DNA of 37,740 nt from a virus (IMGVR_UViG_2603880148_000004); one strand, 5' to 3'; shown: positions 4,821 to 37,740, numbered from the stretch's first letter. Made by a program: numbers and translations. The notes: generated by a model from the letters alone, not told the origin.

Positions 4821-5245
4821 CGTGAGACCTTTTTTTGAACATTTATTAAAAAATGATGCCCTGCGCGACAAATATTCATCTAATCAATGTGATTAATTCA
4901 AGATGTAAGTTTTAGATTCTTATTTAAATTGTGATCTAGATCTCTATTTTTATCTGAACTTTTTCTAATGCATGCTGTGCATGACTATTCTCTGAAAGAA
5001 AATAAATTTGGTAGCTAAATTATATTAAAGGTTGTTATTTATAAGTGTTCTATAATTCATCTCTTTAATTTAAATTCACTGAAAATAACGTCGGAAATTA
5101 TTTAATGATTATTTGTTTATTTTTCCTTATGTGATTGTGGTGGTGTTTTGAACACTCGATATCATTCTCACAAATATTGTTTAGAGGTTTACGTACGTAA
5201 AAAATTGGTTATGCTGTTAAGAGTGGTTACTTCGCCACACAGCTT
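4821..5245. promoter_or_regulatory. AT-rich intergenic region: porin promoter (minus strand) and possibly a phage late promoter (plus strand)
   Basis: 425 bp strongly AT-rich without ORFs upstream of the porin start; followed by a plus-strand terminator. Confidence 0.3.
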
Positions 5246-8144: not shown

Positions 8145-8281
8145 AATCTTAACTACAATATGATTCATTTTGATGATTGTTTCATAAGGAACAGTGAAGT
8201 AAGATCTAAGAGGAGTTAAATTTTATACAGTATAATCATAATATTGCAGCAAGGTGGTTATAATTGAAAGAATATTTAGAT

Positions 8282-9739
8282 ATGAATACATCTCATGTAA
8301 GAGTTGTTACTCATATGTGTGGGTTCCTGGTTTGGCTCTATAGTCTTTCAATGTTGCCACCAATGGTTGTAGCATTGTTTTATAAAGAAAAAAGCCTGTT
8401 CGTTTTCTTTATAACTTTCGTTATATTTTTTTGCATTGGTGGCGGAGCGTGGTATACAACTAAGAAATCTGGCATTCAATTACGTACCCGTGATGGGTTT
8501 ATTATAATTGTAATGTTTTGGATTTTGTTTTCTGTTATTAGTGCATTCCCTTTATGGATTGACTCAGAACTTAATTTAACGTTCATTGATGCTCTGTTTG
8601 AAGGGGTTTCTGGAATAACAACAACAGGAGCAACTGTAATTGATGATGTTAGTTCATTACCTCGGGCATATTTGTACTATCGGTCACAGTTAAATTTTAT
8701 AGGTGGTTTAGGAGTTATTGTTCTGGCGGTTGCTGTATTGCCATTATTGGGTATTGGTGGTGCAAAGCTTTATCAGTCAGAAATGCCGGGGCCATTTAAG
8801 GATGACAAACTCACTCCCCGCCTGGCCGATACGTCACGGACACTGTGGATAACTTATTCTTTATTAGGTATTGCTTGTATTGTCTGTTATAGACTTGCAG
8901 GAATGCCTTTGTTTGATGCTATTTGTCACGGGATTTCCACAGTTTCGCTTGGTGGTTTCTCAACTCATAGCGAGAGTATCGGATATTTTAATAACTATTT
9001 GGTTGAGCTGGTGGCTGGTTCTTTTTCCCTGCTATCGGCTTTCAACTTCACTCTTTGGTATATTGTTATTAGCAGGAAAACGATAAAACCTTTAATCAGA
9101 GATATTGAACTTCGTTTCTTTCTGTTAATAGCCTTAGGGGTGATCATTGTTACCTCTTTCCAGGTCTGGCATATAGGTATGTATGACTTGCATGGAAGTT
9201 TTATTCATTCGTTTTTTCTTGCCAGCTCCATGCTCACTGATAATGGTTTAGCTACGCAGGATTATGCAAGTTGGCCCACGCACACGATAGTGTTTTTGCT
9301 GTTGTCAAGTTTCTTTGGGGGATGTATAGGTTCAACTTGTGGTGGAATTAAGTCACTTCGATTTCTTATACTTTTCAAACAAAGCAAACACGAGATAAAT
9401 CAGCTTTCTCATCCCAGAGCGTTGTTGAGTGTAAATGTAGGAGGGAAGATAGTTACAGATCGTGTAATGAGGTCTGTATGGAGTTTCTTTTTTCTTTATA
9501 CTCTCTTCACGGTGTTTTTTATACTGGTGTTAAATGGTATGGGATATGATTTTCTTACATCATTTGCAACAGTGGCGGCATGTATTAATAATATGGGATT
9601 AGGTTTTGGGGCTACTGCATCGTCATTCGGAGTGCTTAATGACATTGCAAAATGTTTAATGTGCATAGCTATGATTCTTGGTCGCCTTGAAATTTATCCT
9701 GTTATTATATTGTTTTCAGGTTTTTTTTGGCGCTCCTAA
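8282..9739 (+). CDS. trkG: TrkG-type K+ uptake membrane protein (TrkH/TrkG family), 485 aa
   Basis: MNTSHVRVVTHMCGFLVWLYSL... multi-pass membrane protein matching Rac-prophage TrkG from memory; gene is AT-rich; alternative TTG start at 8264 with RBS aaggtgg. Confidence 0.88.
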   Translation: MNTSHVRVVTHMCGFLVWLYSLSMLPPMVVALFYKEKSLFVFFITFVIFFCIGGGAWYTTKKSGIQLRTRDGFIIIVMFWILFSVISAFPLWIDSELNLTFIDALFEGVSGITTTGATVIDDVSSLPRAYLYYRSQLNFIGGLGVIVLAVAVLPLLGIGGAKLYQSEMPGPFKDDKLTPRLADTSRTLWITYSLLGIACIVCYRLAGMPLFDAICHGISTVSLGGFSTHSESIGYFNNYLVELVAGSFSLLSAFNFTLWYIVISRKTIKPLIRDIELRFFLLIALGVIIVTSFQVWHIGMYDLHGSFIHSFFLASSMLTDNGLATQDYASWPTHTIVFLLLSSFFGGCIGSTCGGIKSLRFLILFKQSKHEINQLSHPRALLSVNVGGKIVTDRVMRSVWSFFFLYTLFTVFFILVLNGMGYDFLTSFATVAACINNMGLGFGATASSFGVLNDIAKCLMCIAMILGRLEIYPVIILFSGFFWRS

Positions 9740-9876: not shown

Positions 9877-10668
9877 ATGAGCGAGAAATTAAAGATAGTC
9901 TATCGCCCATTACAAGAATTGTCACCGTATGCGCACAACGCCAGGACGCACAGTACTGAGCAGGTGGCACAACTGGTAGAAAGTATTAAGCAATTCGGCT
10001 GGACTAATCCGGTGCTGATTGACGAAAAGGGCGAAATTATTGCGGGTCACGGTCGTGTTATGGCGGCTGAAATGCTCAAAATGGATTCTGTTCCGGTCAT
10101 TGTTCTGTCTGGCCTGACGGATGAGCAGAAAAAGGCGTACCGCCTGGCAGATAATCGCCTGCCGATGAATGCTGGCTGGGATGAAGATCTGTTGCGGATG
10201 GAGCTGTCGGACCTAATCAATGCTGATTTTGATGTCTCCCTGACAGGCTTCATCCCGACAGAAATTGATGAACTGTTGACGGATGTTTTGCCCGGTACAG
10301 GAAATGAGGAGGAGCCGTATACGACGAAAATTGATACGCCTGTTTATGAGCCGTCGGGCGGTAAACCGGATATCAGTGAACTGTACGACGATACGAAAAC
10401 TCAGGAGCTGATCAGCCGGATACGTTCGGCGTCCCTTGAGCCTGATATTGAGAAATTCCTCCTGTGTGCGGCAGAACGTCACACGGTGTTTAATTTCAGC
10501 AGAATTGCGGACTATTACGCTCACGCCCCCTCTGAAATTCAGTGTTTTTTCGAGGAGTCGGCGCTGGTGATCATTGATTATCAGCAGGCTATTGAAAATG
10601 GATTTGTCCGGATGACGCAGCGCATGGTGGAGATCATGCATGGTGGTGAGGAGGAGGAATATGCATGA
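9877..10668 (+). CDS. ParB-like nuclease domain protein (ParB/sulfiredoxin fold), 263 aa
   Basis: N-terminal motif LIDEKGEIIAGHGRVMAAEML resembles the ParB N-domain core; acidic C-terminal tail; K-12 Rac ynaK is a short relative at the same position. Confidence 0.7.
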   Translation: MSEKLKIVYRPLQELSPYAHNARTHSTEQVAQLVESIKQFGWTNPVLIDEKGEIIAGHGRVMAAEMLKMDSVPVIVLSGLTDEQKKAYRLADNRLPMNAGWDEDLLRMELSDLINADFDVSLTGFIPTEIDELLTDVLPGTGNEEEPYTTKIDTPVYEPSGGKPDISELYDDTKTQELISRIRSASLEPDIEKFLLCAAERHTVFNFSRIADYYAHAPSEIQCFFEESALVIIDYQQAIENGFVRMTQRMVEIMHGGEEEEYA

Positions 10669-11593
10669 TGATTTTTGCGCCTTTATTCTGACTCACGGGC
10701 GACCGGACAAAGTTCTGACTTACCGGACGTTGCGTCGTGCTGGCTATACCGGGAAAATTTTTATCGTTGTTGATGATGAAGATAAGACACGGCATCAGTA
10801 CATGGCTGAATTTGGTGAACAGGTGCTGGTGTTTTCCAAAGCCGATATCGCCAGTCGTTTTGACGAAGCCGATAATTTCTGTGACCGCCGCTCAATTTTT
10901 TACGCCCGTAATGCCTGTTTCGACCTGGCAAAACTGGTCGGGTGTAAATACTTCATTCAGCTCGATGATGATTATCACGAGTTCCAGTTTCGGGTGGATC
11001 GCAACTATGACCAGGCCTATTTTCCGATAAGGAAACTGGATGCGATCCTTTCTGAAATGCTGGCGTACTACGAATCAATACCTGCTCTTTCCATCGCTAT
11101 GTCGCAGGGCGGGGATTTTCTTGGTGACAATGGCGGCCATGCTTCGTGGGTGAAACGCAAGGCAATGAACAGCTTTATCTGTTCGGTTGATCGACCGTTC
11201 TCATTCATGGGGCGCATTAACGAGGATGTGAATACGTACACGAATCTCGGTCGCTGTGGTGAATTGTTTATGACGATCGGTGCTGTCCAGTTAGGGCAGA
11301 AACAGACGCAGAAAAACAGCGGCGGAATGACCGAGCTGTATCTGGATTCCGGAACCTACGTTAAAAGTTTTTACTCCGTCATGTATGCGCCGTCGTGCGT
11401 AAAAATCTCACTGATGGGTGCCAGCCATAAACGCATTCACCATCAGGTCACCTGGAACAACGCTGCAGTAAAAATCCTTCACGAAAAATACAGGAAGAAG
11501 ACACCCTGCATATCAATGGGGGTGACAAATGATTCCGTATTCGAAAGTCGAGTCTCTGGCAGCGTGCCGGATGACTGCACAACAAATCGCTGA
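10661..11593 (+). CDS. Uncharacterised protein with GT-A-like glycosyltransferase features, 310 aa
   Basis: Strong RBS gaggaggagg; 8-nt overlap with the ParB-like gene; motifs ILTHGRP, IFIVVDDEDKT and IQLDDDY resemble GT-A fold DxD signatures; fold assignment is inference only. Confidence 0.6.
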   Translation: MHDDFCAFILTHGRPDKVLTYRTLRRAGYTGKIFIVVDDEDKTRHQYMAEFGEQVLVFSKADIASRFDEADNFCDRRSIFYARNACFDLAKLVGCKYFIQLDDDYHEFQFRVDRNYDQAYFPIRKLDAILSEMLAYYESIPALSIAMSQGGDFLGDNGGHASWVKRKAMNSFICSVDRPFSFMGRINEDVNTYTNLGRCGELFMTIGAVQLGQKQTQKNSGGMTELYLDSGTYVKSFYSVMYAPSCVKISLMGASHKRIHHQVTWNNAAVKILHEKYRKKTPCISMGVTNDSVFESRVSGSVPDDCTTNR

Positions 11594-22513: not shown

Positions 22514-25500
22514 ATGGCAGAGCAAACCTCGCGTCTCGCAATAATTATTGATAGCACTGGAGCAAAAAATAATGCTGACAATCTGACCTCCTCATTAGTC
22601 AAAATGACGCAGGCCGGGGAAACTGCTGCAAATAGCGCAGGGAAAGTGACTAAGGCAACAGAAGATGAGAAGAACGCGCTCGCAAAATTAAAAGCAGCTA
22701 TTGATCCAGTTGGTGCCGCAATTGATACTGTCGGTCGACGCTATTCTGAATTAAAGAAATTTTTCGATAAAGGGCTTATTGATAAAGAAGAATATGAATT
22801 TCTTGTCCGTAAACTTAATGAAACCACAGAGGAATTGAGCGGGGTTGCGCAAGCGCAGAGAGAAGTCGAGAAGGCCGGAAAACTTGCTGCCGCCCAGCAG
22901 GAAGCGCAGGCTCAGGCCTTTCAAAGAATGCTGGACAAGATCGACCCTCTGGCTGCGGCGCTAAGAAATCTTGAACAACAGCATGATGAACTTAATGCTG
23001 CGTTTGCATCCGGGAAAATAAATGGTTCTCAGTTTGAGAATTATAGCCGAAAAATACAGGAAACACGGCGAGAGCTTACCGGAGAGGCTCAGGCAGAGCG
23101 AGAAGCAGCAAAAGCGCATGATGAACAGGTTGTTGCTTTGCAACGTCTGATTGCTCAACTTGATCCTGTCGGAACTGCTTTTAATCGTCTGGTAGAACAA
23201 CAGAAACAGCTCAATGAAGCAAAAGCCAAGGGGATGCTTTCTCCTGAAATGTATGAGGAGCTTTCTGGAAAACTTCGTGCTATGCGGAGTGAGCTTGAGG
23301 TTACTCAATCACAATTAAGCAAAACCGGAATGTCGGCAAAACAAACGGCTTTTGCTATGCGCATGTTGCCTGCACAAATGACGGATATTGTTGTTGGGTT
23401 GTCCACTGGTCAGTCGCCATTTATGGTGTTAATGCAGCAGGGCGGCCAGCTAAAAGATATGTTCGGTGGGATTGGCCCGGCGATCAAAGGTGTAGGTTCT
23501 TATGTGCTGGGATTAATTAATCCTTTTACCCTGGCCGCAGCAGCCGTTGGGGTCTTAGGACTGGCTTACTATAAAGGCTCTCAGGAGCAGGACGAATTTA
23601 ATAAATCTCTTATTCTTACCGGAAATTAGTTGGGGACAACCAGCGGGCAATTGGGCGATATAGCTCAACGTGCCGGGAATGCGGCTGATTCGACAACTGG
23701 TGCTGCGGCGGCAGTATTAAATCAGCTTGTGCGTTCGGGAAAGGTAGCGAGCAGTTCGCTGGAGCAAGTGACGACAGCGATAGTAAAAACGAGCGAAGTA
23801 ACAGGAATATCAACCGAACAACTGGTTAATGACTTCAATGAAATTGCAAAGGATCCTGTCAGTGCCATATCAAAACTTAATGATCAGTACCATTTTCTGA
23901 CACTTGCGACTTATAACCAGATTAAGGCGCTACAGGATGAAGGGAACCAGCAGGAGGCCGCCCGCATTGCGACAGAAGAATACTCATCCTCAATGATCCA
24001 GCGCACCAACCAGATTAAAGAAAATCTTGGTTATCTTGAGACTGCATGGAAAGCTGTCGCAGACTCCGCAAAATGGGCATGGGATTCCATGCTGGATATT
24101 GGCCGTGAGACCTCCCTTGATCAAAAAATCTCAGATGTTCTCCGTCAAATTGATGAAATAGAAAAAAATACCCGACCCGGAGTTTTCGGGTTAGGTGGCA
24201 TTGGAGATGGCGGAGCTCAAAATAAAAGGCTGGCACGATTAAAGCAGCAATTGGGCGTACTTCAAGCAGAAAAAATTGCTCAGGACGTACTAAATTCATC
24301 AATAAACGATTACAACAAGCGACAACAGGAAGGAATTGAACTCAGACAGAGAGCAGATGCCTTTTCAAAACAATATCAGACCCGGGAGCAGCAGAGAGCT
24401 AGTGAACTTGCAAAACTGGAAAAGCTAAAGAATCAGTATTCAAAGGAAGAATATAATAATCTTATCGCTCAAATAAATGAGCGTTATAAAGATCCAAAGC
24501 AACCAAAGGCGAAAGGTTATTCTGATGATGCAGCCCAACGAATGATTGATCATCTGAATCAACAGAATGCGTTACTAAGTTCACAAGCTGAGTTGACCGT
24601 TAAATTAAGTTCCTCTGAACAGGAACTGGTTAAGTGGCGTCAGCGGATTGCCGACCTAGAGTCACGACCATCATCGAAATTAACCCAGGATCAGAAATCG
24701 CTTCTCTTACACCGGGAAGAAATAACCGCGTTGATGGAGAAAAATGTTACGATTGAAAAGAATAACAGGCTAATCAAGGAATCCGCCGAAATAACAGCAT
24801 GGCGTGATTCATTGCAGGCTTCGATTGATAATCGTCAGCAGGGGTATGATATTCAGATTGCTGGTTATGGGGTTGGCGATAAAAATCAGCAACGCCAGCA
24901 GGAATTACTGCGGATTGAACATGGATATAACAATCAGCGTCTGCAACTTGAACGTGACTATGCAGATAAATCCCGTGGAATGTCAGATCATGTTTTTCAA
25001 GAGAAAATGCAGGCTCTGAATGATGCTCTGGAACGGGAAAAAGAAATTGTCAGACAGAAAAACGAGCAGCTCGATATTCAGGCAGGAGACTGGGTTAGTG
25101 ATGCCTCCCAGGGATTCAATAACTGGCTGGATGACACTAAGGATATCAGTGAGCAGATAAAATCAACCACGACTCAGATGTTTGATGGGATGACCGATGC
25201 GCTGGGTGATTTTGTCACGACAGGCAAGGCAAATTTTCGTTCTTTCGCTACTTCCGTGATTTCGGATCTTAGTCGAATAGCATTAAAGGCTTCAATTACT
25301 GGGATTTTCGACAGCATTAGTAACAGTTCTTCTGGGGGGATTTTAGGAACTATCGGGAGTGCTATTAGTAAATTTATTCCGAATGCAAAGGGCGGTGTTT
25401 ATGAGTCTCCGTCATTGAGCACGTATTCGAACGGTATTTATGATTCCCCGCAATTTTTTGCTTTTGCAAAAGGGGCTGGTGTTTTTGGTGAGGCTGGACC

Positions 25501-25747
25501 GGAAGCCATTATGCCATTAACACGAACTTCCGATGGTTCTCTTGGTGTCAGAGCTATTAATAGTAAAAGTGGTAATGGAGGCGGAGATATTACCTATGCC
25601 CCTGTATACCAAATCACTATTCAAAATGACGGCCAGAATGGAGAGATTGGCCCTCAGGCAATAAAAGCACTTATGGGGATGGTTGATCAGCGGGTGCAGG
25701 GCAATCTGTTAAATATGCGACGTGATGGGGGAATGTTAAGTGGCTAA
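22514..25747 (+). pseudogene. Tail tape measure protein gene interrupted by an in-frame TAG at 23627-23629 (371-aa and 705-aa segments in one frame)
   Basis: Both ORFs share a reading frame and are separated only by TAG; the second begins at TTG straight after the stop; coiled-coil-rich N-terminal part and Gly-rich C-terminal part; combined length about 1077 aa. Confidence 0.75.
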
Positions 25748-28154: not shown

Positions 28155-29894
28155 ATGGGTAAAGGAAGCAGTAAGGGGCATACCCCGCGCGAAGCGAAGG
28201 ACAACCTGAAGTCCACGCAGCTGCTGAGTGTGATCGATGCCATCAGCGAAGGGCCGGTTGAAGGTCCGGTGGATGGATTAAAAAGCGTGCTGCTGAACAG
28301 TACGCCGGTGCTGGACAGTGAGGGGAATACCAACATCTCCGGTGTCACGGTGGTGTTCCGGGCAGGTGAGCAGGAGCAGACACCGCCGGAGGGATTTGAA
28401 TCCTCCGGTTCCGAGACGGTGCTGGGTACGGAAGTGAAATACGACACGCCGATCACCCGGACCATCACGTCTGCAAACATCGACCGTCTGCGCTTTACCT
28501 TCGGTGTGCAGGCACTGGTGGAAACCACCTCAAAGGGTGACCGGAATCCGTCGGAAGTCCGCCTGCTGGTTCAGATACAACGTAACGGTGGCTGGGTGAC
28601 AGAAAAAGACATCACCATTAAGGGCAAAACCACGTCGCAGTATCTGGCCTCGGTGGTGGTGGATAACCTGCCGCCGCGACCGTTCAATATCCGGATGCGC
28701 AGGATGACACCGGACAGCACCACAGACCAGCTGCAGAACAAAACGCTCTGGTCGTCATACACCGAAATCATCGATGTGAAACAGTGCTACCCGAACACGG
28801 CACTGGTCGGCGTACAGGTGGATTCGGAGCAGTTCGGCAGCCAGCAGGTGAGCCGTAATTATCATCTGCGCGGGCGTATTCTGCAGGTGCCGTCGAACTA
28901 TAACCCGCAGACGCGGCAATACAGCGGTATCTGGGACGGAACGTTTAAGCCAGCATACAGCAATAACATGGCCTGGTGTCTGTGGGATATGCTGACCCAT
29001 CCACGCTACGGCATGGGGAAACGTCTTGGTGTGGCGGATGTGGATAAATGGGCGCTGTATGTCATCGGCCAGTACTGCGACCAGTCAGTGCCGGACGGTT
29101 TTGGCGGTACGGAGCCGCGCATCACCTGTAATGCGTACCTGACCACACAGCGCAAGGCGTGGGATGTGCTCAGTGATTTCTGCTCGGCGATGCGCTGTAT
29201 GCCGGTATGGAACGGGCAGACGCTGACGTTCGTGCAGGACCGACCGTCGGATAAGGTGTGGACCTATAACCGCAGTAATGTGGTGATGCCGGATGATGGC
29301 GCGCCGTTCCGCTACAGCTTTAGCGCCCTGAAAGACCGCCATAATGCCGTTGAGGTGAACTGGATTGACCCGAACAACGGCTGGGAGACGGCAACAGAGC
29401 TTGTGGAGGATACGCAGGCCATTGCCCGTTACGGTCGTAACGTCACGAAGATGGATGCTTTTGGCTGTACCAGCCGGGGGCAGGCACACCGCGCCGGGCT
29501 GTGGCTGATTAAAACAGAACTGCTGGAAACGCAGACCGTGGACTTCAGCGTGGGCGCAGAAGGGCTTCGCCATGTGCCGGGTGATGTCATTGAAATCTGT
29601 GATGATGACTATGCCGGTATCAGCATCGGCGGGCGCGTGCTGGCGGGAAACAGCCAGACCCGGACGCTGACGCTCGACCGTGAAATCACGCTGCCATCCT
29701 CCGGCACCAGGCTGATAAGCCTGGTTGACGGAAGTGGCAATCCGGTCAGCGTGGAGGTTCAGTCCGTCACCGACGGCGTGAAGGTGAAAGTTAGCCGTGT
29801 TCCTGACGGCGTTGCCGGATACAGCGTGTGGGGGCTGAAGCTGCCGACGCTGCGCCAGCGCCTGTTCCGCTGCGTGAGTATTATAACCAGGTGA
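28155..29894 (+). pseudogene. J: Host specificity / central tail fibre protein J (lambda J-like), truncated after 579 codons by the Mu-like insertion
   Basis: MGKGSSKGHTPREAKDNLKSTQLLSVIDAISEGP... matches the lambda J N-terminus; lambda J is about 1130 aa; homology stops near 29882 and the ORF ends in a short unrelated tail. Confidence 0.88.
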
Positions 29895-29896
29895 AT

Positions 29897-30055
29897 CATT
29901 TGATACCGACAAGGGTTTTAGTGAAAGGAGGTGAAATCACCTGTAAGATACTGAAATAAAACAGGTGATGGCTAGATGTGCGGATAAGGTCTATTTGATA
30001 CCGATTGTGCAATAATTAGTCATTTATTATAAAATCGGCAACTCATTTGATACTG
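29897..30055 (+). repeat. Three direct copies of ATTTGATAC(C/T)G, candidate transposase-binding sites of the Mu-like left end
   Basis: Copies at 29897-29909, 29993-30004 and 30044-30055, between the element terminus and the repressor gene. Confidence 0.45.
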
Positions 30056-30127
30056 TGGTTTTAGTCTTTTAAGGCGTTCCAAACAATGCGAAATACTCGA
30101 TATAGTGCAAAATGCGGGCTAATGCTA

Positions 30128-30673
30128 TTAACCCGCTTTTGGTTCTACCGCGTTAGATTTGCGACTTCTCTCAGTTTCTTCCAAAATCTCTCTGACGCGT
30201 TCGTCAGACATACCTTCAAGCTGTAATGCAGCTATTCTTTTCCTTCCTTCTAAGCGGATTAGATCTTGATTTTCAGGCTCTAACAACCGAGCTAAGTACT
30301 TGGCTCCATTCAGAACCAAATTTTTCGATAGCTGCTCTAAGTCTTTTTCATCAAGTGCGCTGATAATCGTCATAATTATCTTCTTGCTTTCATCTTGATT
30401 TTCCTTGATCTCACACCGATTCACTTGTGATGCATCACTGAATCCACATAGCCACTCAACACTTACTCCTTCGATAGACGCAATCTGAAGGGCGACACTT
30501 AAGGATGGCTCAGTGCCACGAGACAGATAATTGTTTAGTGTTGAAAATGAAAGCCCCCAATCTCTTGCTGCAGCTCTGACGCTGCGGGAGCCAATCAGCC
30601 TTTTCAGACGCTCAGCAATGCTTTCTTTTCTACCACCAGGAAAAGAAAGAGATGTTGTTGTTTGCTTGTTCAT
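30128..30673 (-). CDS. Transcriptional repressor with HTH (XRE-like), in the Mu c position, 181 aa
   Basis: Leftward-transcribed gene between the element end and ner; HTH-like segment GLSFSTLNNYLSRGTEPSLSVALQIASIEGVSVEWL; RBS aggaag. Confidence 0.65.
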   Translation of the reverse strand: MNKQTTTSLSFPGGRKESIAERLKRLIGSRSVRAAARDWGLSFSTLNNYLSRGTEPSLSVALQIASIEGVSVEWLCGFSDASQVNRCEIKENQDESKKIIMTIISALDEKDLEQLSKNLVLNGAKYLARLLEPENQDLIRLEGRKRIAALQLEGMSDERVREILEETERSRKSNAVEPKAG

Positions 30674-30857
30674 TTTCTTTTCTTCCTATCAATTTGAAAT
30701 TATTAACTTTTAGTGTTGTCAGCAACCATTGATCCACAATAGACAAAAGAAAGATGTTTTTTTGCTTTACATGAAGCAGAGGTGGATCAATACTTATATC
30801 AAACTTGATAACTAAGTTTAGTTATCAAATTTCGTAACTTTTTAGGATAGATGAATC
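30674..30857. promoter_or_regulatory. Divergent promoter/operator region between repressor and ner
   Basis: Inverted repeats TTGATCCAC / GTGGATCAA about 75 bp apart and the palindrome TTGATAACTAAgTTTAGTTATCAA; AT-rich. Confidence 0.5.
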
Positions 30858-31088
30858 ATGGCGAGAAATGAAGTTAAGCCTGATTGGCATCCTCAAAGAA
30901 TTTTGGGGGAAGTCAGAGCCAGAGAAGGAAGCATGAGGGCGCTGGCCCGTAAAGCTGGCGTGGGTCAGAACAATCTGTACAACGCGGTATACCGCCATGT
31001 TCCCAAGTATGAGGGGATTATCGCGGAATGCCTGGGGGTGCCGCCCGAGGAGATTTGGCCCAGCCGCTACATTCGTAAGGTCGCGTAA
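30858..31088 (+). CDS. ner: Ner-like DNA-binding protein, 76 aa
   Basis: ...DWHPQRILGEVRAREGSMRALARKAGVG...VPKYEGIIAECLGVPPEEIWPSRY resembles Mu Ner (DWH.., IWPSRY motifs); located before the transposase. Confidence 0.8.
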   Translation: MARNEVKPDWHPQRILGEVRAREGSMRALARKAGVGQNNLYNAVYRHVPKYEGIIAECLGVPPEEIWPSRYIRKVA

Positions 31089-31090
31089 TT

Positions 31091-33178
31091 ATGTTTGCTT
31101 CAGTCAAAGAACTGGTTGGATTACCGGGGATGCCGGGAACGGAGCAAGGCGTTCGCTATTCAATCAGGAAGTATGCAACCAGCGAAACCAGCAGACGCCG
31201 CAAGAAAGGCGCTAAAGGTTTTGAATACAGCATTGACTGTTTACCTGAAGTGACACAGCAGGCATTACGCGAACGTTATGCCCTGCAACTGATGACGCAA
31301 AAAGCCGATGAATCACCGGCTCCGGTGGTGACAAAGGCCAGACGCTCGTCTGCCGTGGTTGATGCGGTGGAGGCATATCGCGGATCACCACAACTGATGG
31401 TCGAACGCCTCAATGCCCTGACTGAAAACCAGCGCCAGGTGGCAGACGCACGCATTGCGATCGTCAGTGAGGTGCTGAAATTCACGCAACAACCCGGTTT
31501 CAGCTGCGCTAAAGCTATCCGGTTCATCGTTGACCGCCTGTCACACTCGCAACTGGATGAGCGCATTGTGGCAATGGTTGAGATAGCGAACGCCAGAAAG
31601 GGAAACAGTCGCGTGTTGAGTGAAATCACGCTGAAACGCTGGATTGCGGCCTTTAATAAGGCACAGAACGCTGCTGAACGCCTGCTTTTGCTGGCACCAG
31701 GTAAACGCCAGGAAATAAAAGCCGAAGATATTAACTGGTTGCCCGAATTTCTGGCGCAGTATCGCCAGTCAAACGGCCGACCAATGACCGAGGCTTACGA
31801 GGATTTTGTTGCCGAATGGCAGCACCGGCACGCTGATGAGCCTTATATGCTCGATATCATGCCGTCTTATGACACCATTCGCCGCGCAATGAAGAAACTG
31901 CCGGAAGTGGTGAAACAAAAAGGACGGGTTACCGGCAGTGAATACCGCCAGCTTGAGGGATTCACGCGCCGCGACTGGTCAAAAATGCCGGTGAATTATG
32001 TCTGGATTGGTGACGGTCACGGCATGAAGCTGAAATGCGCGCACCCGGTTCACGGGCGGCCATTCGCACCGGAAGTGACCTTTGTTATCGACGGTGGCAC
32101 GCGCTTTGTGGTGGGCTGGAGCCTTGACCTGGCTGAAAATGTTTTCGCCGTAGCCGGTGCCATACAGCACGGTATTCGCCATCATGGCAAACCGTTTCTG
32201 TATTACTCGGATAATGGCTCCGGGGAAACCGCCGACGTCCTGGATAAGGAGATTGTGGGGATACTGCCACGACTGGGGATTAATCACCCGACAGGGATTG
32301 CCGGTAATCCGCAGGGACGGGGCATTATCGAACGGCTTAACCGCACATTACCGATGCGCATAGCCCGTAAATACCGCACCTATTTCGGGAAAGGAGCAGA
32401 TCGCGAGACGTTACGTAAAACCAACCGCGATTTACGCTCGGCATTCAGTGCCCTGCAACAGGGCAAACGGCTGAACGCCCGGCAGCAGTCAGCGATGCGT
32501 GATTTACCGTCCTGGTCTGAACTGATTGATGCCATTCGTGACGGTGTTGAGTGGTACAACAACCGGCCGCACGATGAATTACCCATGAAGCCGAACGGTA
32601 AACATTACAGCCCGGCGGAGTTCAGAAAAAAACGCCTGGCGGAAGAGGACACGGAAATTGAATGGCTGTCCGATGTTGAACTGCGGGATATGTTCCGGCC
32701 GATGGTGGAGCGCCCTGTAAGACGCTGTGAAATACGCTGGCTGAATAATATTTACTACGCGCCCGAGCTGCGTGACGAGCATGGCCGTAAGGTACTTATC
32801 AGCTATGACATTCATGATGCCGAACGAATTACCGTGCGCCGCCCGGATGGCAGCGTGATTTGCGAGGCGGTATGGGACGGCAATAAACGCGAAGCCTTCC
32901 CTGTCAGCGCGGAATACTACAAACAGCAGCAGCGCCTTAAAGGCATGCGTAAACGCGCAGAGGAAAAAATCCGTGATGCCGAGGATGAGGTTGTCAACGT
33001 GCGGGAGCACAAGCCGCAGGAGCCCTGGCTGGAAAACATATACCGCCCTGTGGGTAATACGGTGACCGTTCAGCAACCGGTCGCTGACGATGAACCTGAT
33101 GAAGAATACGAGCGTAATTTCCAGCGGGGATTGCAACTGCTCGAAGCGAAATTAAAAGAAAGTGATCCGCTGGCCTGA
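31091..33178 (+). CDS. Mu-type DDE transposase (MuA-like), 695 aa
   Basis: Size and position after ner; N-terminal segment VKELVGLPGMPGTEQGVRYSIRK...KGAKGFEYSIDCLP resembles the MuA N-terminal DNA-binding domain; followed by the MuB-like ATPase. Confidence 0.85.
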   Translation: MFASVKELVGLPGMPGTEQGVRYSIRKYATSETSRRRKKGAKGFEYSIDCLPEVTQQALRERYALQLMTQKADESPAPVVTKARRSSAVVDAVEAYRGSPQLMVERLNALTENQRQVADARIAIVSEVLKFTQQPGFSCAKAIRFIVDRLSHSQLDERIVAMVEIANARKGNSRVLSEITLKRWIAAFNKAQNAAERLLLLAPGKRQEIKAEDINWLPEFLAQYRQSNGRPMTEAYEDFVAEWQHRHADEPYMLDIMPSYDTIRRAMKKLPEVVKQKGRVTGSEYRQLEGFTRRDWSKMPVNYVWIGDGHGMKLKCAHPVHGRPFAPEVTFVIDGGTRFVVGWSLDLAENVFAVAGAIQHGIRHHGKPFLYYSDNGSGETADVLDKEIVGILPRLGINHPTGIAGNPQGRGIIERLNRTLPMRIARKYRTYFGKGADRETLRKTNRDLRSAFSALQQGKRLNARQQSAMRDLPSWSELIDAIRDGVEWYNNRPHDELPMKPNGKHYSPAEFRKKRLAEEDTEIEWLSDVELRDMFRPMVERPVRRCEIRWLNNIYYAPELRDEHGRKVLISYDIHDAERITVRRPDGSVICEAVWDGNKREAFPVSAEYYKQQQRLKGMRKRAEEKIRDAEDEVVNVREHKPQEPWLENIYRPVGNTVTVQQPVADDEPDEEYERNFQRGLQLLEAKLKESDPLA

Positions 33179-33260
33179 AATAAAAAAATAACCCGAGGGG
33201 TGACTCAGGTTATTTGAGGTTTCAGTCTCGGAGAATGCTGTCTCAAGCGAGGTGAATAAT

Positions 33261-34193
33261 ATGACCGATATTAACGATGTAATCAAGACCATTGATGAAC
33301 TTATTGATGGCGGCGTACTGACGCAGTATGCCATCGCCAGAGAGGCGGGAATTTCCGACGGCACATTATCGGCTTTCCGTAAGGGAAAATATAAAGGCGA
33401 TAACGCTGCTGTGGCTGCTTCCCTGCGCTCCTGGTATGAGAACTGGAATAAACAAAGCGCACTGCCGGAACCGCCGCAGTTTGTGGAAACTCAGACAGTC
33501 CAGGAGCTGCGCGCACTGTTTCAGGCGGTTCGCCTGATGGGCTGTATTAACGTTATTGTGGGCGTACCGGGTGTGGGTAAAACGGCCACTGCCCGTAATT
33601 ACTGCCAGGAGCAACCAAACACCTGGATGATCACCCTGTCACCCGCGCACTCCAGCGTCACGGAGTGTCTGCTGGAGCTGGCCGATGCGCTGGGGATTGA
33701 TTACACCCGCGCGAACAAAGGGGCATTATCCCGCGCCATCCGCCGTCGCCTGATGGGAACGCGTGGACTGGTGATTGTGGATGAGGCGGATCATCTTGGT
33801 ATTGACGGTCTGGAGCAACTCCGGGCAATTCAGGACGCCACGGGGATCGGGATGGTGCTTATTGGTAACCCGCGCGGATTGTTTAAAGGTGGACGCCGCG
33901 CCTTTGGTGATTTATCGCGCCTGTTCAGCCGTCTTGCCCGTACAAAACAACTTCGCAAGGCCAAAAAGGCGGATGTGCTGGCCATTGCCATGGCGTGGGG
34001 GATCAGTGGTGAGGCCGAGCTGGCCGTCATGCAGGCTATCGCTGAAAAGCCGGGAGCGTTACGCGTTCTGACACATACGCTTAACCAGGCGTGGCTCACC
34101 GCCAGCGGTGAAGGCGCGGCGCTGACAGAAAAACATATTAATGCGGCCTTTAAAGAGGTTTATACCAACCCTGAATTACTCTCACAGGTGTGA
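33261..34193 (+). CDS. Transposition ATPase (MuB-like AAA+ protein), 310 aa
   Basis: Walker A GVPGVGKT and Walker B VIVDEADHL; N-terminal HTH; RBS gaggtga; immediately after the transposase. Confidence 0.85.
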   Translation: MTDINDVIKTIDELIDGGVLTQYAIAREAGISDGTLSAFRKGKYKGDNAAVAASLRSWYENWNKQSALPEPPQFVETQTVQELRALFQAVRLMGCINVIVGVPGVGKTATARNYCQEQPNTWMITLSPAHSSVTECLLELADALGIDYTRANKGALSRAIRRRLMGTRGLVIVDEADHLGIDGLEQLRAIQDATGIGMVLIGNPRGLFKGGRRAFGDLSRLFSRLARTKQLRKAKKADVLAIAMAWGISGEAELAVMQAIAEKPGALRVLTHTLNQAWLTASGEGAALTEKHINAAFKEVYTNPELLSQV

Positions 34194-34195
34194 TT

Positions 34196-34417
34196 ATGGC
34201 GGTATTTAATATTCCTGATATTTACGGACGCTTTTACCTGGTTAATTTCGATAACGTGAAGGTGATTTCACTGGCCGAAAATAAAGAATGTGGCGATTTA
34301 CTTTTTGAATTTAATGACCGCACACGAATGGTGATATCTGCCGGACTTGATCGCGAAGGTGCGACAGAAGTTTACAGCGGAATATGCCGTTCTGTTGGTG
34401 CGAAACAAGTCAGCTAA
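34196..34417 (+). CDS. Small early protein in the Mu kil position, 73 aa
   Basis: Position directly after the B-like gene; RBS aggtg; overlaps the B stop. Confidence 0.45.
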   Translation: MAVFNIPDIYGRFYLVNFDNVKVISLAENKECGDLLFEFNDRTRMVISAGLDREGATEVYSGICRSVGAKQVS

Positions 34418-34429
34418 ATGAGGTGTTAT

Positions 34430-34684
34430 ATGAATATGCAATCCTGCGGTAACAAAATGAATTTATTCGACTCCCTGAACAGCGCGCGCCGTCTGACCGA
34501 ACTTGCCGGTGCGGTACTGGAACGCAGTAAGCGCTATCCGCAACGTTTTGCACTGAAAACCACGCCGCCGGTAGGCAACGTGCAGGGAACCGGTGAAATT
34601 GAAATCACCATACAGACCAACGGCCTGCGCCGCCGTGTGAAGGCCACCCGCATCAGCGGCTGCACGGTTTACTGGGAGGTGTGA
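34430..34684 (+). CDS. Hypothetical Mu-like early protein, 84 aa
   Basis: ORF with RBS gaggtg 4 nt upstream of ATG 34430. Confidence 0.4.
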   Translation: MNMQSCGNKMNLFDSLNSARRLTELAGAVLERSKRYPQRFALKTTPPVGNVQGTGEIEITIQTNGLRRRVKATRISGCTVYWEV

Positions 34685-34685
34685 G

Positions 34686-34967
34686 GTGAAAAAAAATCTC
34701 ATTGCATGGGCGTGGTCGAGTGGTCTTATTGAGTTTGGTTACGTCCTGCCGGAAGGTGCATTGCCGATAGTTGCCGGAAAGCCTGCCACGGTACGGCATG
34801 TGATTGAGGTTATGGCGCGTCATGGACGTGATGAACAGGAGCAGTTACTGGTTCCGGGGATACCGGAAGCGGTGACGGAGGAAGAAGCCTTTAATGCCAT
34901 GATTCGGTTCTGCCGTGAGGTTAGACGCCGGGTCAGTTATCCAAACAGAACGAGGACCAGAGGATGA
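34686..34967 (+). CDS. Hypothetical Mu-like early protein, 93 aa
   Basis: GTG start with RBS gggaggtg; tightly packed operon. Confidence 0.45.
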   Translation: MKKNLIAWAWSSGLIEFGYVLPEGALPIVAGKPATVRHVIEVMARHGRDEQEQLLVPGIPEAVTEEEAFNAMIRFCREVRRRVSYPNRTRTRG

Positions 34968-35236
34968 GTAAAGTCGTACGCATTATTTTCGAATACAAGG
35001 AAGATGTTATCTGCAAAAACTCTGATGGCAGCACGCACAGAGGGGTAAGTCTGGATATACGTTCAACCGGAATAAAGAAGAAAGATAATGGACCCGCCAT
35101 GATTTTTGGGGTGGTTATGCTGGCAGAAAGCAGAAACTTCGCAGAGTTTGTGGCAATGAAAGCCAGTGCATTCATGAAAGACAGAGGCATGGCTTCCGGG
35201 GTTATTAACGGTAATGAATTTAATCAACAGGGGTAA
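34964..35236 (+). CDS. Hypothetical Mu-like early protein, 90 aa (paralog of the next gene)
   Basis: RBS gaggaccagagg; N-terminus MSKVVRIIFEYKED similar to the N-terminus of the following ORF. Confidence 0.45.
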   Translation: MSKVVRIIFEYKEDVICKNSDGSTHRGVSLDIRSTGIKKKDNGPAMIFGVVMLAESRNFAEFVAMKASAFMKDRGMASGVINGNEFNQQG

Positions 35237-35240
35237 TTCC

Positions 35241-35534
35241 ATGAGCAAAGTACGCGTTATTTTTGAATTTAATCATGTTTCGCATGACGAAAAGTTGGCA
35301 GGCAATGACTGTGTTGAAGTGCATGAAAAGATTGGAGTGGATGTGAAAACAGAACGTGATACGGATAACAGGCCGACGTCACTCTGTGACGTTTATGCAA
35401 GTATTCTCCAGTATCACAGTCCTGCAATTATTCAGTTTCTCTCAGCGGAATTTCAGGCATCTGCACAGTCTTTTGGAGCGGATGCCATCATTAAACGCCA
35501 CCGCGTGCATAAAGCATCAGGCACACTGCAATAA
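35241..35534 (+). CDS. Hypothetical Mu-like early protein, 97 aa (paralog of the previous gene)
   Basis: RBS acagggg; N-terminus MSKVRVIFEFNHV similar to the preceding ORF. Confidence 0.45.
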   Translation: MSKVRVIFEFNHVSHDEKLAGNDCVEVHEKIGVDVKTERDTDNRPTSLCDVYASILQYHSPAIIQFLSAEFQASAQSFGADAIIKRHRVHKASGTLQ

Positions 35535-35545
35535 GGAAAAACAAA

Positions 35546-36076
35546 ATGGCTAAACGCGTTACAAAATTAAAGGCCGCAGCCGAGGCGGCACCGCAGACCC
35601 GGGAAGAAGTCAGCCGTGATATCCGCACCCTGGGAGATATTCAGCGAGAGGCGCTGCGCCTGGAAACGGCGATGAATGACGAAGTGGCAGAAATCACCGC
35701 CCGTTATACGCCGCAGATTGAAAATCTTAAAAAGCAAATCAAAGTGCTTTTTAAAGGGATTCAGGACTGGTGCAAAACCAACCGTGATGAGCTGACGAAC
35801 GGCGGCAAAACCAAAACAGCCAATCTGACCACCGGAACGGTGTCATGGCGGCTGGGAACGCCATCATGCAGCGTCAGCCGTGATGTGGAAGGTGTGATTG
35901 AAATGCTGCGCCGTATGGGGCTTGAGCGTTTCATCCGCACGAAAGAGGAAGTGAACAAGGAAGCCGTCCTGGCGGAGCCGGATGCTGTGAAAGGCATTGC
36001 CGGTATCAAGGTGAATAAAGGCGCTGAAAGTTTTTATGTCGAGCCTTTTGAACAGGACGCCGGACTGAATAAATAA
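35546..36076 (+). CDS. gam: Gam-like host-nuclease inhibitor / DNA-end-binding protein, 176 aa
   Basis: Size and position as for Mu Gam; RBS aaggaaaa. Confidence 0.7.
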   Translation: MAKRVTKLKAAAEAAPQTREEVSRDIRTLGDIQREALRLETAMNDEVAEITARYTPQIENLKKQIKVLFKGIQDWCKTNRDELTNGGKTKTANLTTGTVSWRLGTPSCSVSRDVEGVIEMLRRMGLERFIRTKEEVNKEAVLAEPDAVKGIAGIKVNKGAESFYVEPFEQDAGLNK

Positions 36077-36221
36077 CACCACATTAATCAATTAAATATC
36101 ACTTCATTTTAATTATGGCGCTCGCGTCAGGGGACTGCTTGCGCCTGAAAACAGAAAATAAGGGTTAAGAAATATGAAATACGTTTATATCGTCATTAAT
36201 AATGTGGTGGGGAAATAAATC

Positions 36222-36755
36222 ATGATTGATGCAAAAGTGCTTGAAGGGGTTAAAAACTGGCTGTGTATTTATGGCCGCCTGACCTGCGGTGTACTGGCTG
36301 AAAAAATGAATATGCCGCCATCCTCCATGGTTTATTTTCTGCGTGATGCGGTTGATGCAGGCGTGCTGACGGAATGTAACGGTTTTTATGATATTCCGCG
36401 CCCCCGCCCGGTGCAGCCGGTTCGTCGCAAATGCAGCCAGGAATCTGCGGCTGATGATGTTCAGTGGTGCGGCTTCAGAAAATCCCTGCCATGGATTGAG
36501 GGGCATGATATTCCGTCGATGGCGTGGGAATTTGCTCAGGGCGTTCTGACCTGTGAAACCGTTTATGTGGTGGCTGAAGTTGATGAGCAGGCCATGAAAG
36601 AAGGCGTGCCCCAGTTTGTGATGGCGTATATCGACATACGCCTGGGCGTCATTATCTGCGGTTTAAGCGGCTGGAATATCACTGAACATGTTCTGCGCTA
36701 CCTGATTGTTGACCGGACAGCAGCGCCTGCCGGGATATCTGCGGAGGTGGCGTAA
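36222..36755 (+). CDS. Hypothetical Mu-like early protein, 177 aa
   Basis: ORF with RBS ggtgggga; position similar to Mu GemA-type genes (position only). Confidence 0.5.
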   Translation: MIDAKVLEGVKNWLCIYGRLTCGVLAEKMNMPPSSMVYFLRDAVDAGVLTECNGFYDIPRPRPVQPVRRKCSQESAADDVQWCGFRKSLPWIEGHDIPSMAWEFAQGVLTCETVYVVAEVDEQAMKEGVPQFVMAYIDIRLGVIICGLSGWNITEHVLRYLIVDRTAAPAGISAEVA

Positions 36756-37270
36756 TGTTCTTTAAAACATCAAACCCTTCCGCGCTGGCTGCGTGGCAAA
36801 AATACCAGCAGGACTGCCAGAAAGTTAAGGATGAGGCAAAACGCCTTGAGGCCGTGCTGAATGTTGCGTGCCGGTCGGTATTTGTATCCGGTATCAGTGG
36901 ATTTTACTTTAAGGGACTGCGTTTTACGGAGGACAAATATCCTTTTCATCGCGACTTATGGCGAAAACCGACTGCGTCGAATGGCTGGAGCTGCACACCG
37001 CGCACATCACGTATCCCTAAAACCCTGCGTGTTGCCTCTGATGAACTGAACAGTCTGTGGCGTGAATATTCGCCCGTCACGTATGCCAGAACCGATGCGC
37101 TGTTGTTCTGGTTGGGTATTGATTTCTCGGCAATCCTGTTTGGCCCTGTGAAGTGGTTCTGCGTTGACGATGTGATTTACCTTCAGTGCGGCGTAAAACC
37201 CGCAAAACAGAAAATGACCGAAATACTGTCTGATGAGTTTTATGCTGCTGAAAAGCGAGTCAGGGGGTGA
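36755..37270 (+). CDS. Hypothetical Mu-like early protein, 171 aa
   Basis: ORF with RBS ggaggtgg; start overlaps preceding stop. Confidence 0.5.
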   Translation: MFFKTSNPSALAAWQKYQQDCQKVKDEAKRLEAVLNVACRSVFVSGISGFYFKGLRFTEDKYPFHRDLWRKPTASNGWSCTPRTSRIPKTLRVASDELNSLWREYSPVTYARTDALLFWLGIDFSAILFGPVKWFCVDDVIYLQCGVKPAKQKMTEILSDEFYAAEKRVRG

Positions 37271-37273
37271 TGC

Positions 37274-37471
37274 ATGATGAAATTACAACCCATGGGACTA
37301 AAAGGTCGCGCCCCCGCTCATGTCCGTCCGTGGACACCTGAAGAAGATGCGCTGCTGATTGCGCTTTATTCATCCACCCCGGTTAAGGATATTGCTGCCA
37401 GAATAAAAAGAACTGTCTGGGCTGTATATAACCGGACTGGTGTATTGCGCAGTTCATACCCGGAGTTACTG
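37274..37471 (+). pseudogene. Mu-like early gene truncated by IS1 insertion (first about 66 codons intact)
   Basis: ORF MMKLQPMGLKGRAPAHVRPWTPEEDALLIALY... runs into the IS1 terminus at 37472; its last about 26 codons are read from IS1 sequence. Confidence 0.4.
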
Positions 37472-37740
37472 GGTAGTGACTCCAACTTACTGATAGTGTT
37501 TTATGTTCAGATAATGCCCGATGACCTTGTCATGCAGCTCCACCGATTTTGAGAACGACAGCGACTTCCGTCCCAGCCTTGCCAGATGTTGTCTCAGATT
37601 CAGATTATGTCGCTCAATGCGCTGAGTGTAACGCTTGCTGATAACGTGCAGCTTTCCCTTCAGGCGTGATTCATACAGCGGCCAGCCATCCGTCATCCAT
37701 ACCACGACCTCAAAGGCCGACAGCAGGCTCAGAAGACGCT
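37472..37740 (-). mobile_element. Partial IS1, inverted relative to the copy at 1-267, cut by the window edge
   Basis: ggtagtgactccaacttactgatagtgttttatgttcag... is the reverse complement of the IS1 end at 240-267; encodes an identical InsB C-terminus on the minus strand. Confidence 0.85.
37487..37740 (-). CDS. insB: IS1 transposase InsB, C-terminal fragment (N-terminus outside the window)
   Basis: Minus-strand translation identical to the InsB fragment at 1-252. Confidence 0.85.

Follow-up and report, generated by a model that had tools for sequence, protein, structure and literature searches.

The left arm of an Sp18-family Mu-like prophage interrupts the tail-tip gene J of a lambdoid prophage

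Phages like Sp18 are transposable, and of ten such phages six were located within mobile elements, prophages and Stx phages among them (PMC10132054; PMC7430833; PMC2669165). Members of this family, among them Sp18 of O157:H7 Sakai, a prophage of E. coli HH35 and Phi804-3, have a common layout of end sites and variable insertion sites. Mu_JNE082796 and Mu_JNE122137 (LC727881 and LC727895; PMC10132054) belong to the same family and lie inside lambdoid prophages (Stx2c and Stx1a, respectively); their 4-bp duplications were annotated by the depositors. Literature searches on the duplication length of Sp18 itself gave nothing useful, and one on the accession JNLZ00000000 found nothing. A further family member lies in the TipJ gene of E. 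coli OkiPb01714; this Mu-like prophage entered the J gene of a lambdoid prophage independently and shows both of its ends and a CGTA duplication.

The window analyzed here is a stretch of 37,740 bp, which is the entire draft contig JNLZ01000052.1 and ends inside an IS1 element. A preliminary description had placed a Mu-type transposable prophage, other than Mu itself, inside the J gene of a lambdoid prophage. This view is upheld, as J is intact in relatives and the element occurs in unrelated genes; every feature listed in that description was found, in place or shifted by at most 1 bp. We propose that a Mu-like phage of the Sp18 family integrated by DDE transposition at codon 576 of J in a resident lambdoid prophage, a reading to which we assign a probability of about 0.93. 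The finding is real but ordinary: the element is a common, already described Mu-like prophage of E. coli, and its insertion into prophages has already been published. The features of the region are as follows.

28155-29881, plus strand: lambdoid gene J for tail tip and host specificity, first 576 codons, severed by the insertion
29878-29881, no strand: predicted 4-bp target sequence GTAT, extrapolated from the 4-bp duplications at four other family insertions
29882-37471, plus strand: left arm, 7590 bp, of a Mu-like transposable prophage of the Sp18 family, by homology to full-length Mu-like prophages
29882-30055, plus strand: left attachment end, by position and motif, with the terminus TATAACCAGG and three direct sites of the transposase-binding type
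29898-29908, 29993-30003 and 30045-30055, plus strand: putative transposase-binding sites, 11-mer ATTTGATACYG
30128-30673, minus strand: immunity repressor, 181 aa, XRE/CI-type HTH (phrog_3037 transcriptional repressor, E 4.5e-60)
30674-30857, no strand: divergent early control region, with putative operator and promoter roles suggested by position
30858-31088, plus strand: ner-type early regulator, 76 aa (Pfam HTH_35, E 1e-21)
31091-33178, plus strand: MuA-type DDE transposase, 695 aa (Pfam HTH_Tnp_Mu_1 and Mu-transpos_C)
33261-34193, plus strand: MuB-like AAA+ target-DNA activator, 310 aa (Phage-MuB_C, E 8e-25; AAA_22)
34196-35534, plus strand: five small early genes, by gene calls, PF26843 and PHROG matches
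34196-34417, plus strand: small early gene 1 (phrog_3375)
34430-34684, plus strand: Kil (PF26843 Kil_protein, phrog_2679)
34686-34967, plus strand: small early gene 3 (phrog_1518)
34964-35236, plus strand: small early gene 4 (phrog_4107)
35241-35534, plus strand: small early gene 5 (phrog_2230)
35546-36076, plus strand: Gam host-nuclease inhibitor, 176 aa (Phage_Mu_Gam, E 5.5e-42)
36222-36755, plus strand: Mu gp11-like gene (Pfam Gp11_C, E 6e-41)
36755-37270, plus strand: Mu gp12-like gene (PF26885 Phage_Mu_Gp12)
37274-37471, plus strand: first 66 of 183 codons of a Myb/SANT-like regulator gene, interrupted by IS1
37472-37740, minus strand: IS1 end, 269 bp, with terminal inverted repeat (GGTAGTGACTCCAACTTACTGATAGTG...) and PF03400 DDE_Tnp_IS1

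Scans of the whole window for Rfam families and tRNA genes found nothing.

The junction was located by alignment with intact J. The open reading frame at 28155-29894 (579 codons) is identical to the intact 1131-aa gpJ of NCTC9088 at 575 of the residues 1-576. On the DNA level the window equals intact J through 29881 (...GAGTAT) and diverges beyond this position, where intact J reads CCGTGAGAAC and the window reads TATAACCAGGTGAATC. J homology stops at codon 576, and the final codons, ITR followed by the stop (29895-29897), are element sequence. The element starts at 29882; the earlier description was right about the disruption, while its values for the start (29883) and for the last J codon (579) need correction. 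The GC content falls at the junction from about 0.57-0.59 to 0.40-0.50. The N-terminal Pfam domains of J (FNIII-A_GpJ and Phage-tail_3) are intact; a full-length lambda gpJ/TipJ has about 1130 aa with a C-terminal receptor-binding region, and only residues 1-576 are present here. The insertion leaves J coding for 576 of 1131 residues, without the C-terminal receptor-binding part, and the lambdoid prophage would consequently be unable to build an infectious tail tip. The tape-measure gene of the same prophage also has a nonsense codon.

The order of J, repressor, ner, A and B could in principle be native to one mosaic phage. We found no support for this view, and it is hardly credible, because J homologues with 99.5% DNA identity run on for 555 codons and are then followed by lom and tail-fibre genes. 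Moreover, a homology search detected the junction between J and the Mu-like element in no complete E. coli genome, and elsewhere the element sits in chromosomal genes. An exact scan for the 47-nt junction, run on a genome collection of species representatives to which the source assembly does not belong, gave 0 matches. An origin of the join by faulty assembly or by recombination has in its favor that the contig comes from a draft short-read assembly with one visible junction. This is nevertheless very improbable: the break falls on the canonical terminus of the family, with HH35, 600029, S1-CAM-01-A and JE86-ST05 agreeing to the base, the two sides have no repeat in common, and the contig is recorded in three samples.

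The identity of the inserted DNA is clear from full-length relatives. E. coli HH35 has a complete prophage of 38.6 kb, which interrupts dgcE, and the arm (29882-37471) aligns with the left 7.6 kb of this prophage in one ungapped piece at 99.6% identity. The Mu-type late genes (Mor, portal gp29-like, MuF, head gpT, contractile tail, Com/Mom) lie outside the window; they are present in the HH35 copy, whose annotation lists head, tail, Mor, Com and Mom genes of the Mu type. In the full copies, too, the late genes are annotated as Mu-type head and contractile-tail proteins. Sp18 has the same gene order, 93-99% protein identity in the early genes (A, B, Gam, gp11 and gp12) and 93-95% DNA identity to the arm outside the immunity region. 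It differs in its immunity module, which is another allele, and in its left 400 bp, which are only 78% identical; its left terminus is TGTAACC against TATAACC in the window, which shows only the left 7.6 kb. Early-gene identity and the ends place the arm in the Sp18 family, albeit with a different allele of the immunity module. The arm is 93.5% identical on the DNA level to Mu_JNE082796 at 87% coverage; this prophage and Mu_JNE122137 differ from our copy in the host prophage and target gene, in being complete with both ends and in a left end with TG. The OkiPb01714 copy differs by its position at about codon 503, by another immunity region and by a TG left end.

The element is mobile. Over the shared 7.6 kb, copies of this element with 98.5-99.6% identity occur in dgcE, in sgrR and in genes of the PilZ and RHS types. 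The gene sorM, the prpD/prpE intergenic region, Stx phages and the second J gene mentioned above carry further copies of the family. Among 5426 complete E. coli genomes, 248 have the A-B module, each at one to four places. The family thus shows the many sites and short duplications that characterize Mu-like phages, the duplications being known from four full copies elsewhere (TACG, CGTA, CATC and AGAG). All of these are 4 bp, contrary to the 5 bp expected in the preliminary description. GTAT is predicted to recur at the right junction, which lies outside the contig; one junction is visible here. Transposition into J would accordingly be read from this one junction, with the right end and the target duplication beyond the window.

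The left terminus had been described as TG-initiated. The window reads TATAACC at this place, and other family members have TGTAACC. The TA terminus, compared with TG/CA in Mu, counts against the proposed transposition; yet the right end of the Sp18 family, with the motif GGTATCAAAAAAATCGCCGCGCTATA, natively reads ...GCTATA-3', and copies ending in TATAACC occupy five different genes. The three direct repeats reported for the left end are confirmed as exact copies of ATTTGATACYG at 29898, 29993 and 30045. These are the only three in 37.7 kb, all on the plus strand and all at the left end; with one mismatch there are 6 matches against 1.48 expected, and 6 were reached in 0 of 100 shuffles. Their offsets from the terminus (+20, +115 and +167) are the same in the window, HH35, OkiPb01714 and LC727881. 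The right termini of full copies carry the same motif in inverted orientation at +20, +42 and +77, a layout which matches the multiple inverted end repeats of a Mu-like phage.

The transposase was examined by profile searches because an AlphaFold2 model, computed from 13 close homologues, was unusable (mean pLDDT 38.9). Its profile matches best, among PDB entries, the MuA transpososome 4FCY (E 7.8e-23) and also 1BCM (E 1.4e-13) and 1TNS; alignment to MuA with hhalign gave a probability of 98.75% over 600 columns. D308, D374 and E414 are invariant across 38 transposase homologues with 28-80% identity, and these residues probably form the catalytic triad. The protein appears to have the architecture of MuA, with an N-terminal HTH, an RNase H-like D-D-E core and Mu-transpos_C; sequence and profile homology together point to a DDE fold. 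A gene order native to a single phage and the lack of a DDE transposase fold had both been named beforehand as grounds for giving up the Mu-like interpretation. J is intact in the relatives and the putative triad is invariant, so neither ground applies.

The rest of the early gene set that was described before, repressor, ner, MuB-like ATPase, small early genes and gam, is confirmed together with the 695-aa transposase by Pfam and PHROG matches, and all open reading frames of the arm are intact. Over 300 aa the MuB-like protein shares 48% identity with Mu B, and it is 99% identical to Sp18 B; encoded next to the transposase, it belongs by homology to the AAA+ target activators of the MuB type. 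Gam is 57% identical to Mu Gam and 99% to Sp18 Gam, gp11 and gp12 are 68% and 55% identical to the Mu proteins and 98% and 94% to those of Sp18, and Ner is 45% identical to Mu Ner and 43% to Sp18 Ner. The full-length Myb/SANT-like protein of HH35 matches phrog_323. The repressor is 42% identical to that of Sp18. The Pfam family HTH_3 matches it at E 2e-4 and Phage_CI_repr at E 7e-3, in each case short of the curated cut-off, and BLASTP gave no match to Mu c. Residues 94-178, by contrast, are weakly similar to the Mu c family phrog_7148 (E 1.2e-4, reciprocal profile match). The view of an XRE-type repressor holds for its XRE/CI HTH, whereas the statement that it is unlike Mu c must be softened, since this weak similarity suggests that its C-terminal half is not wholly unrelated. 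The control region between repressor and ner contains inverted repeats (30728-30737/30782-30791), a palindrome (30801-30832) and one weak promoter-like site on the plus strand (30766-30794), a count not above shuffle expectation.

By homology with Mu, the MuA-type transposase would bind three TTTGATACYG sites per end and nick the 3' ends. The MuB-like AAA+ protein would pick the target, and the ends would be joined with a 4-bp stagger at GTAT (29878-29881). The leftward XRE-HTH repressor would then silence the ner-A-B-kil-gam early operon. At a later time IS1 would have entered the Myb-like gene at a distance of 7590 bp from the left end.

The alignment to HH35 ends at 37471, exactly where the IS1 end starts; for the remainder of the Myb-like gene HH35 has ...AAATATAAACACCCAAGAT.... 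The terminal 83-aa product matches PF03400 DDE_Tnp_IS1 (InsB-type), so that IS1 is recognized from 269 bp. A truncation of the element by IS1, as claimed before, is not established: because the contig ends inside IS1, truncation looks the same as a simple IS1 insertion combined with an assembly break. On balance we find it probable that the Mu-like prophage is complete, with a simple IS1 insertion, and that other contigs carry its remaining sequence of about 31 kb, its right end and the 3' half of J. The contig stop would then reflect a short-read assembly breaking at the multicopy IS1. This agrees with a contig that equals the window and stops 269 bp into IS1, and the lack of indels relative to HH35 and the intact reading frames suggest a recent, otherwise undamaged element. 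The far side of IS1 is not in the window. A predicted right-junction fusion, MKCKSVSKKSPRYS followed by J 577-1131, was searched in the protein database; no product of the predicted 570-605 aa was found at full coverage, in results swamped by partial J fragments. IS1 promotes adjacent deletions, and it adjoins the element at 37472. A deletion caused by IS1, which would leave the 7.6-kb left arm as the sole remnant, is plausible but on the whole doubtful, as a contig ending in IS1 is equally expected from simple insertion and the retained arm has no other decay.

The locus is an example of one prophage knocking out the host-range gene of another, with an IS on top. Such layering is ordinary decay in E. 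coli prophage regions and carries little weight beyond correct annotation. The 579-codon frame should be annotated as a disrupted J and 29882-37471 as an arm of an Sp18-family Mu-like prophage; a truncation by IS1 cannot be claimed from a contig ending in an IS.

Compared with known transposable phages, the arm has the left-end order of Mu (repressor, ner, A, B, kil, gam, gp11, gp12), the domain architecture of MuA, the C-terminal domain of MuB and the site layout L1...L2, L3 / R1, R2, R3. An identity with Mu or D108 was rejected: in the BLAST comparison proposed earlier neither was among the megablast matches, and the proteins are only 23-68% identical to those of Mu, which makes the element Mu-like but not Mu. 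The ends also exclude Mu proper (Muvirus mu), given the left TATAACC, the right ...GCTATA-3' and the 4-bp duplications. Mu makes a 5-bp duplication, and its right terminus is CA-3' as opposed to TA-3' in the Sp18 family. The DNA-binding domain of the Mu repressor is a winged helix like MuA-Ialpha, that of the window repressor an XRE HTH. The transposase is 93% identical to Sp18 A and 23% to Mu A, and its D374 and E414 lie 40 residues apart, compared with 56 from D to E in MuA. It is closer to D3112 (30% identity over 89%, E 6e-78) and to VW-6B (47%) than to MuA. For the D3112/B3-type phages and VW-6B no DNA similarity to the window was found, and, in contrast to them, B, gam, gp11 and gp12 of the window match Mu at 48-68% on the amino acid level. 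The Sp18 family may represent a mechanism of its own within Mu-type transposition and may also land preferentially in resident prophages, although we regard this as unlikely. Its traits would be a 4-bp stagger, tolerance of TA-3' termini, a D3112/B3-like transposase with a Mu-like B and, possibly, a repressor in which an XRE HTH is joined to a C-terminal domain resembling that of Mu c. The preference is suggested by the six of ten copies in mobile elements in one study and by two independent J-gene insertions; if true, landing in resident prophages would disable competing phages. Alternatively, insertions into prophages are simply better tolerated than those elsewhere. The 4-bp duplications and TA termini of the Sp18 family advise caution in taking Mu as a universal model for transposable phages.

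The lambdoid gene J in the window is interrupted by a Mu-like prophage, the left arm of which extends from 29882 to 37471. The window is a complete draft contig (JNLZ01000052.1, 37,740 bp, assembly GCA_000700125.1), which is recorded in 3 samples. Since it starts within the lambdoid prophage and ends within IS1, neither prophage boundary is visible. Positions 1-29881 comprise the late half of the lambdoid prophage with the following genes.

First genes, in order: antirepressor fragment, NinB, RusA, Q
3738-4871, minus strand: porin gene, after Q
5739-6791: DNA methylase, then holin and Rz
8264-9739: TrkH-type cation transporter, between Rz and terminase
9877-11593: ParB_N protein and adjoining TET-associated glycosyltransferase (TAGT)
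Head genes, in order: small and large terminase, portal, MuF-like protein, P22-type coat protein
Lambda-type tail genes, in order: terminator, tube, chaperone, tape measure, M, L, K, I, J

The porin, the DNA methylase, the TrkH-type transporter, the ParB_N protein and TAGT are cargo genes of this prophage; the last two may form a DNA-modification module.

The ORF at 28155-29894 (579 codons) is identical in 575 of 576 positions to residues 1-576 of the intact gpJ (1131 aa) of E. coli NCTC9088, a strain in which lom and tail-fibre genes come after J. On the DNA level the identity extends up to ...CGCTGCGTGAGTAT, the last base of which is window position 29881; beyond this point the intact J reads CCGTGAGAACGAC, whereas the window reads TATAACCAGGTGAATCATTTGATACCG. 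This divergence indicates that J is cut at codon 576 and that the inserted DNA supplies the terminal codons ITR and the stop. These data confirm the preliminary description of a Mu-like prophage nested in a lambdoid J gene and support the core of its interpretation, but its element start (29883) is one base off and its codon 579 is the length of the ORF and not the end of J homology. The tape-measure gene (22514-25747) contains one in-frame stop at 23627-23629, which divides it into ORFs of 371 and 705 aa; the host prophage hence has a second tail defect beside the broken J.

The inserted DNA aligns to complete E. coli genomes as a single ungapped piece. The best match, with 99.6% identity, is to a prophage of strain HH35, inserted in the diguanylate cyclase gene dgcE; it is about 38.6 kb long, and its left 7.6 kb correspond to the element. 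The HH35 prophage encodes a protein of the gp16 family, to which Mu GemA belongs, as well as Mor and lysis genes. These are accompanied by head genes (a protein of the DUF935 family, which provides the portal in Mu; a MuF-like minor head protein; a protease; the gpT head protein), tail genes (sheath, tube, tape measure, baseplate, invertible tail-fibre genes), Com and a Mom-like protein. Identity is 93.5% between the window element and "Mu_JNE082796", which is annotated as a Mu-like phage inside an Stx2c phage.

The homology with HH35 ends at 37471 within a 183-aa Myb/SANT-like gene, the continuation of which is AAATATAAACACCCAAGAT... An IS1 terminal repeat begins at 37472, and the contig stops 269 bp further. 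Short-read assemblies break at multicopy IS elements. Because the contig ends inside such an element, a simple insertion of IS1 into an otherwise complete Mu-like prophage and an IS1-mediated deletion of the remaining prophage give the same data; the truncation by IS1 stated in the preliminary description is one of these two readings. Simple insertion is slightly favoured over deletion, since the left arm is free of indels and its ORFs are all unbroken. A junction scan of the genome collection and a protein search with the predicted J fusion did not reveal the other side of IS1 or the right junction.

The ends of the element were compared with those of related full copies. The exact motif ATTTGATACYG occurs in the window only at 29898, 29993 and 30045, in agreement with the three direct repeats previously noticed at the left end. 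In the window, HH35, OkiPb01714 and LC727881 these sites begin at +20, +115 and +167 from the terminus, and this spacing is kept even across diverged spacers. In full copies the motif recurs, inverted, at +20, +42 and +77 from the right terminus. The family ends thus match the layout of Mu, in which the left end has one terminal site and two distal ones and the right end has three sites close together. The left terminus was expected to start with TG, but this copy reads TATAACC. The same terminus is found in HH35 (dgcE), 600029 (sgrR), S1-CAM-01-A (a PilZ gene) and JE86-ST05 (an RHS gene); together with the copy in J, TA-ended copies occur in five different genes, which indicates that they have moved. 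Other lineages, among them Sp18, the name-giving Mu-like prophage of E. coli O157 Sakai, have TGTAACC. Every right end seen reads ...GCGCTATA-3'. Sp18-family prophages terminate in TATA-3' on the right; on the left some lineages have TG, and the lineage of this window has TA. Repeats of 4 bp flank four full copies: TACG (HH35), CGTA (OkiPb01714), CATC (LC727881) and AGAG (LC727895), the latter two annotated by the depositors as 4-bp duplications. A search for a 5-bp target duplication, as proposed earlier, was therefore based on the wrong expectation. In both duplication and termini the family departs from Mu, which has a 5-bp duplication and TG/CA termini. Among the comparison loci, family ends and duplications lie at L001 20001, L003 ~7141 (minus strand), L002 21511, L006 ~9595 and the ends of L007 and L009. 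The duplication at the insertion in J is predicted to be GTAT (29878-29881); the right junction, outside the contig, would then read the right-end motif GGTATCAAAAAAATCGCCGCGCTATA followed by GTATCCGTGAGAACGACGAC.

The 695-aa protein contains the Pfam domains HTH_Tnp_Mu_1 and Mu-transpos_C as well as weak rve matches. It aligns with MuA in hhalign over 600 columns (98.75% probability), and D269 and D336 of MuA align to D308 and D374. The protein also contains GNPQGRGIIERLNRT, a classic integrase-core E motif, which is probably the counterpart of GQAKPVERAFG in MuA. D308, D374 and E414 are invariant across an alignment of 38 homologues with 28-80% identity. The best solved structure for the profile of this alignment is the MuA transpososome 4FCY (E 7.8e-23); the profile also matches the MuA core 1BCM, MuA domain Ialpha 1TNS, TnsB and retroviral integrase cores. 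The AlphaFold model (pLDDT 38.9) was too poor for use, and we infer a DDE fold from homology. Collectively these results uphold the assignment as a Mu-type DDE transposase. The C-terminus (33100-33178) ends with DDEPDEEYERNFQRGLQLLEAKLKESDPLA; most of the ~80%-identical E. coli homologues end with DDEYETERDEYLNHSLDILEQNRRKK, the same tail as MuA, which suggests a mosaic swap. In Mu this tail contacts MuB and ClpX.

The comparison with Sp18 shows high identity for A (93%), B (99%), Gam (99%), gp11 (98%) and gp12 (94%), but only 42% for the repressor, 43% for Ner and, on the DNA level, 78% for the first ~400 bp. The element therefore belongs to the Sp18 family but has an immunity cassette different from that of Sp18. 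The divergence covers left end, repressor and ner (window 29882-31090 versus 272-1490 in the Sp18 locus L013; 42-43% on the amino acid and 78% on the DNA level, with 93-99% in the rest). OkiPb01714 has a different repressor gene, of 203 aa, at the same position. Together this argues for exchangeable immunity cassettes in the Sp18 family. Among 5426 complete E. coli genomes, 248 contain the A-B module, in 1-4 places each.

The repressor (30128-30673, minus strand) strongly matches phrog_3037 and general XRE/CI-type HTH families, and BLASTP gave no match to the Mu c repressor; this agrees with the earlier view of an XRE-type protein that is not Mu c-like. A weak match (E 1.2e-4) connects residues 94-178 with phrog_7148, to which Mu c belongs (E 7e-73); conversely, residues 90-185 of Mu c have a weak match to phrog_3037 (E 1.1e-4). 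Judging from these reciprocal matches the repressor might be a chimera with an N-terminal XRE/CI-type HTH on a Mu-c-like C-terminal domain.

The gene order at the left end is the same as in Mu. The identity with Mu proteins is modest (Ner 45%, B 48%, Gam 57%, gp11 68%, gp12 55%, Kil weak), MuA is only 23% identical over the full length (E 1e-13), and Mu and D108 are absent from the megablast matches of the element; the proposal that it is not Mu itself is hence sustained. In tblastn the transposases of Pseudomonas VW-6B (47% identity) and of D3112-type phages (30%, E 6e-78) are closer than MuA.

Both the element and the occurrence of a Mu-like phage in a prophage are already described, and the interest of the present case is low for this reason; the corrections to the preliminary description are limited to terminus, duplication size, codon number and IS1 truncation. 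In O157 Sakai, Sp18 was reported to be a Mu-like prophage that is intact (PMC2669165), and its relatives occupy strain-specific sites and were termed transposable (PMC7430833). In clonal complex 119, six of ten Mu-like phages reside inside mobile elements, among them prophages and Stx phages (PMC10132054). In OkiPb01714 a related Mu-like prophage has inserted independently into a lambdoid TipJ gene, at a different codon (about 503) and with both ends present, in the following loci.

L002 20000-21510: OkiPb01714 TipJ insertion
L006 9590-11776: OkiPb01714 TipJ insertion
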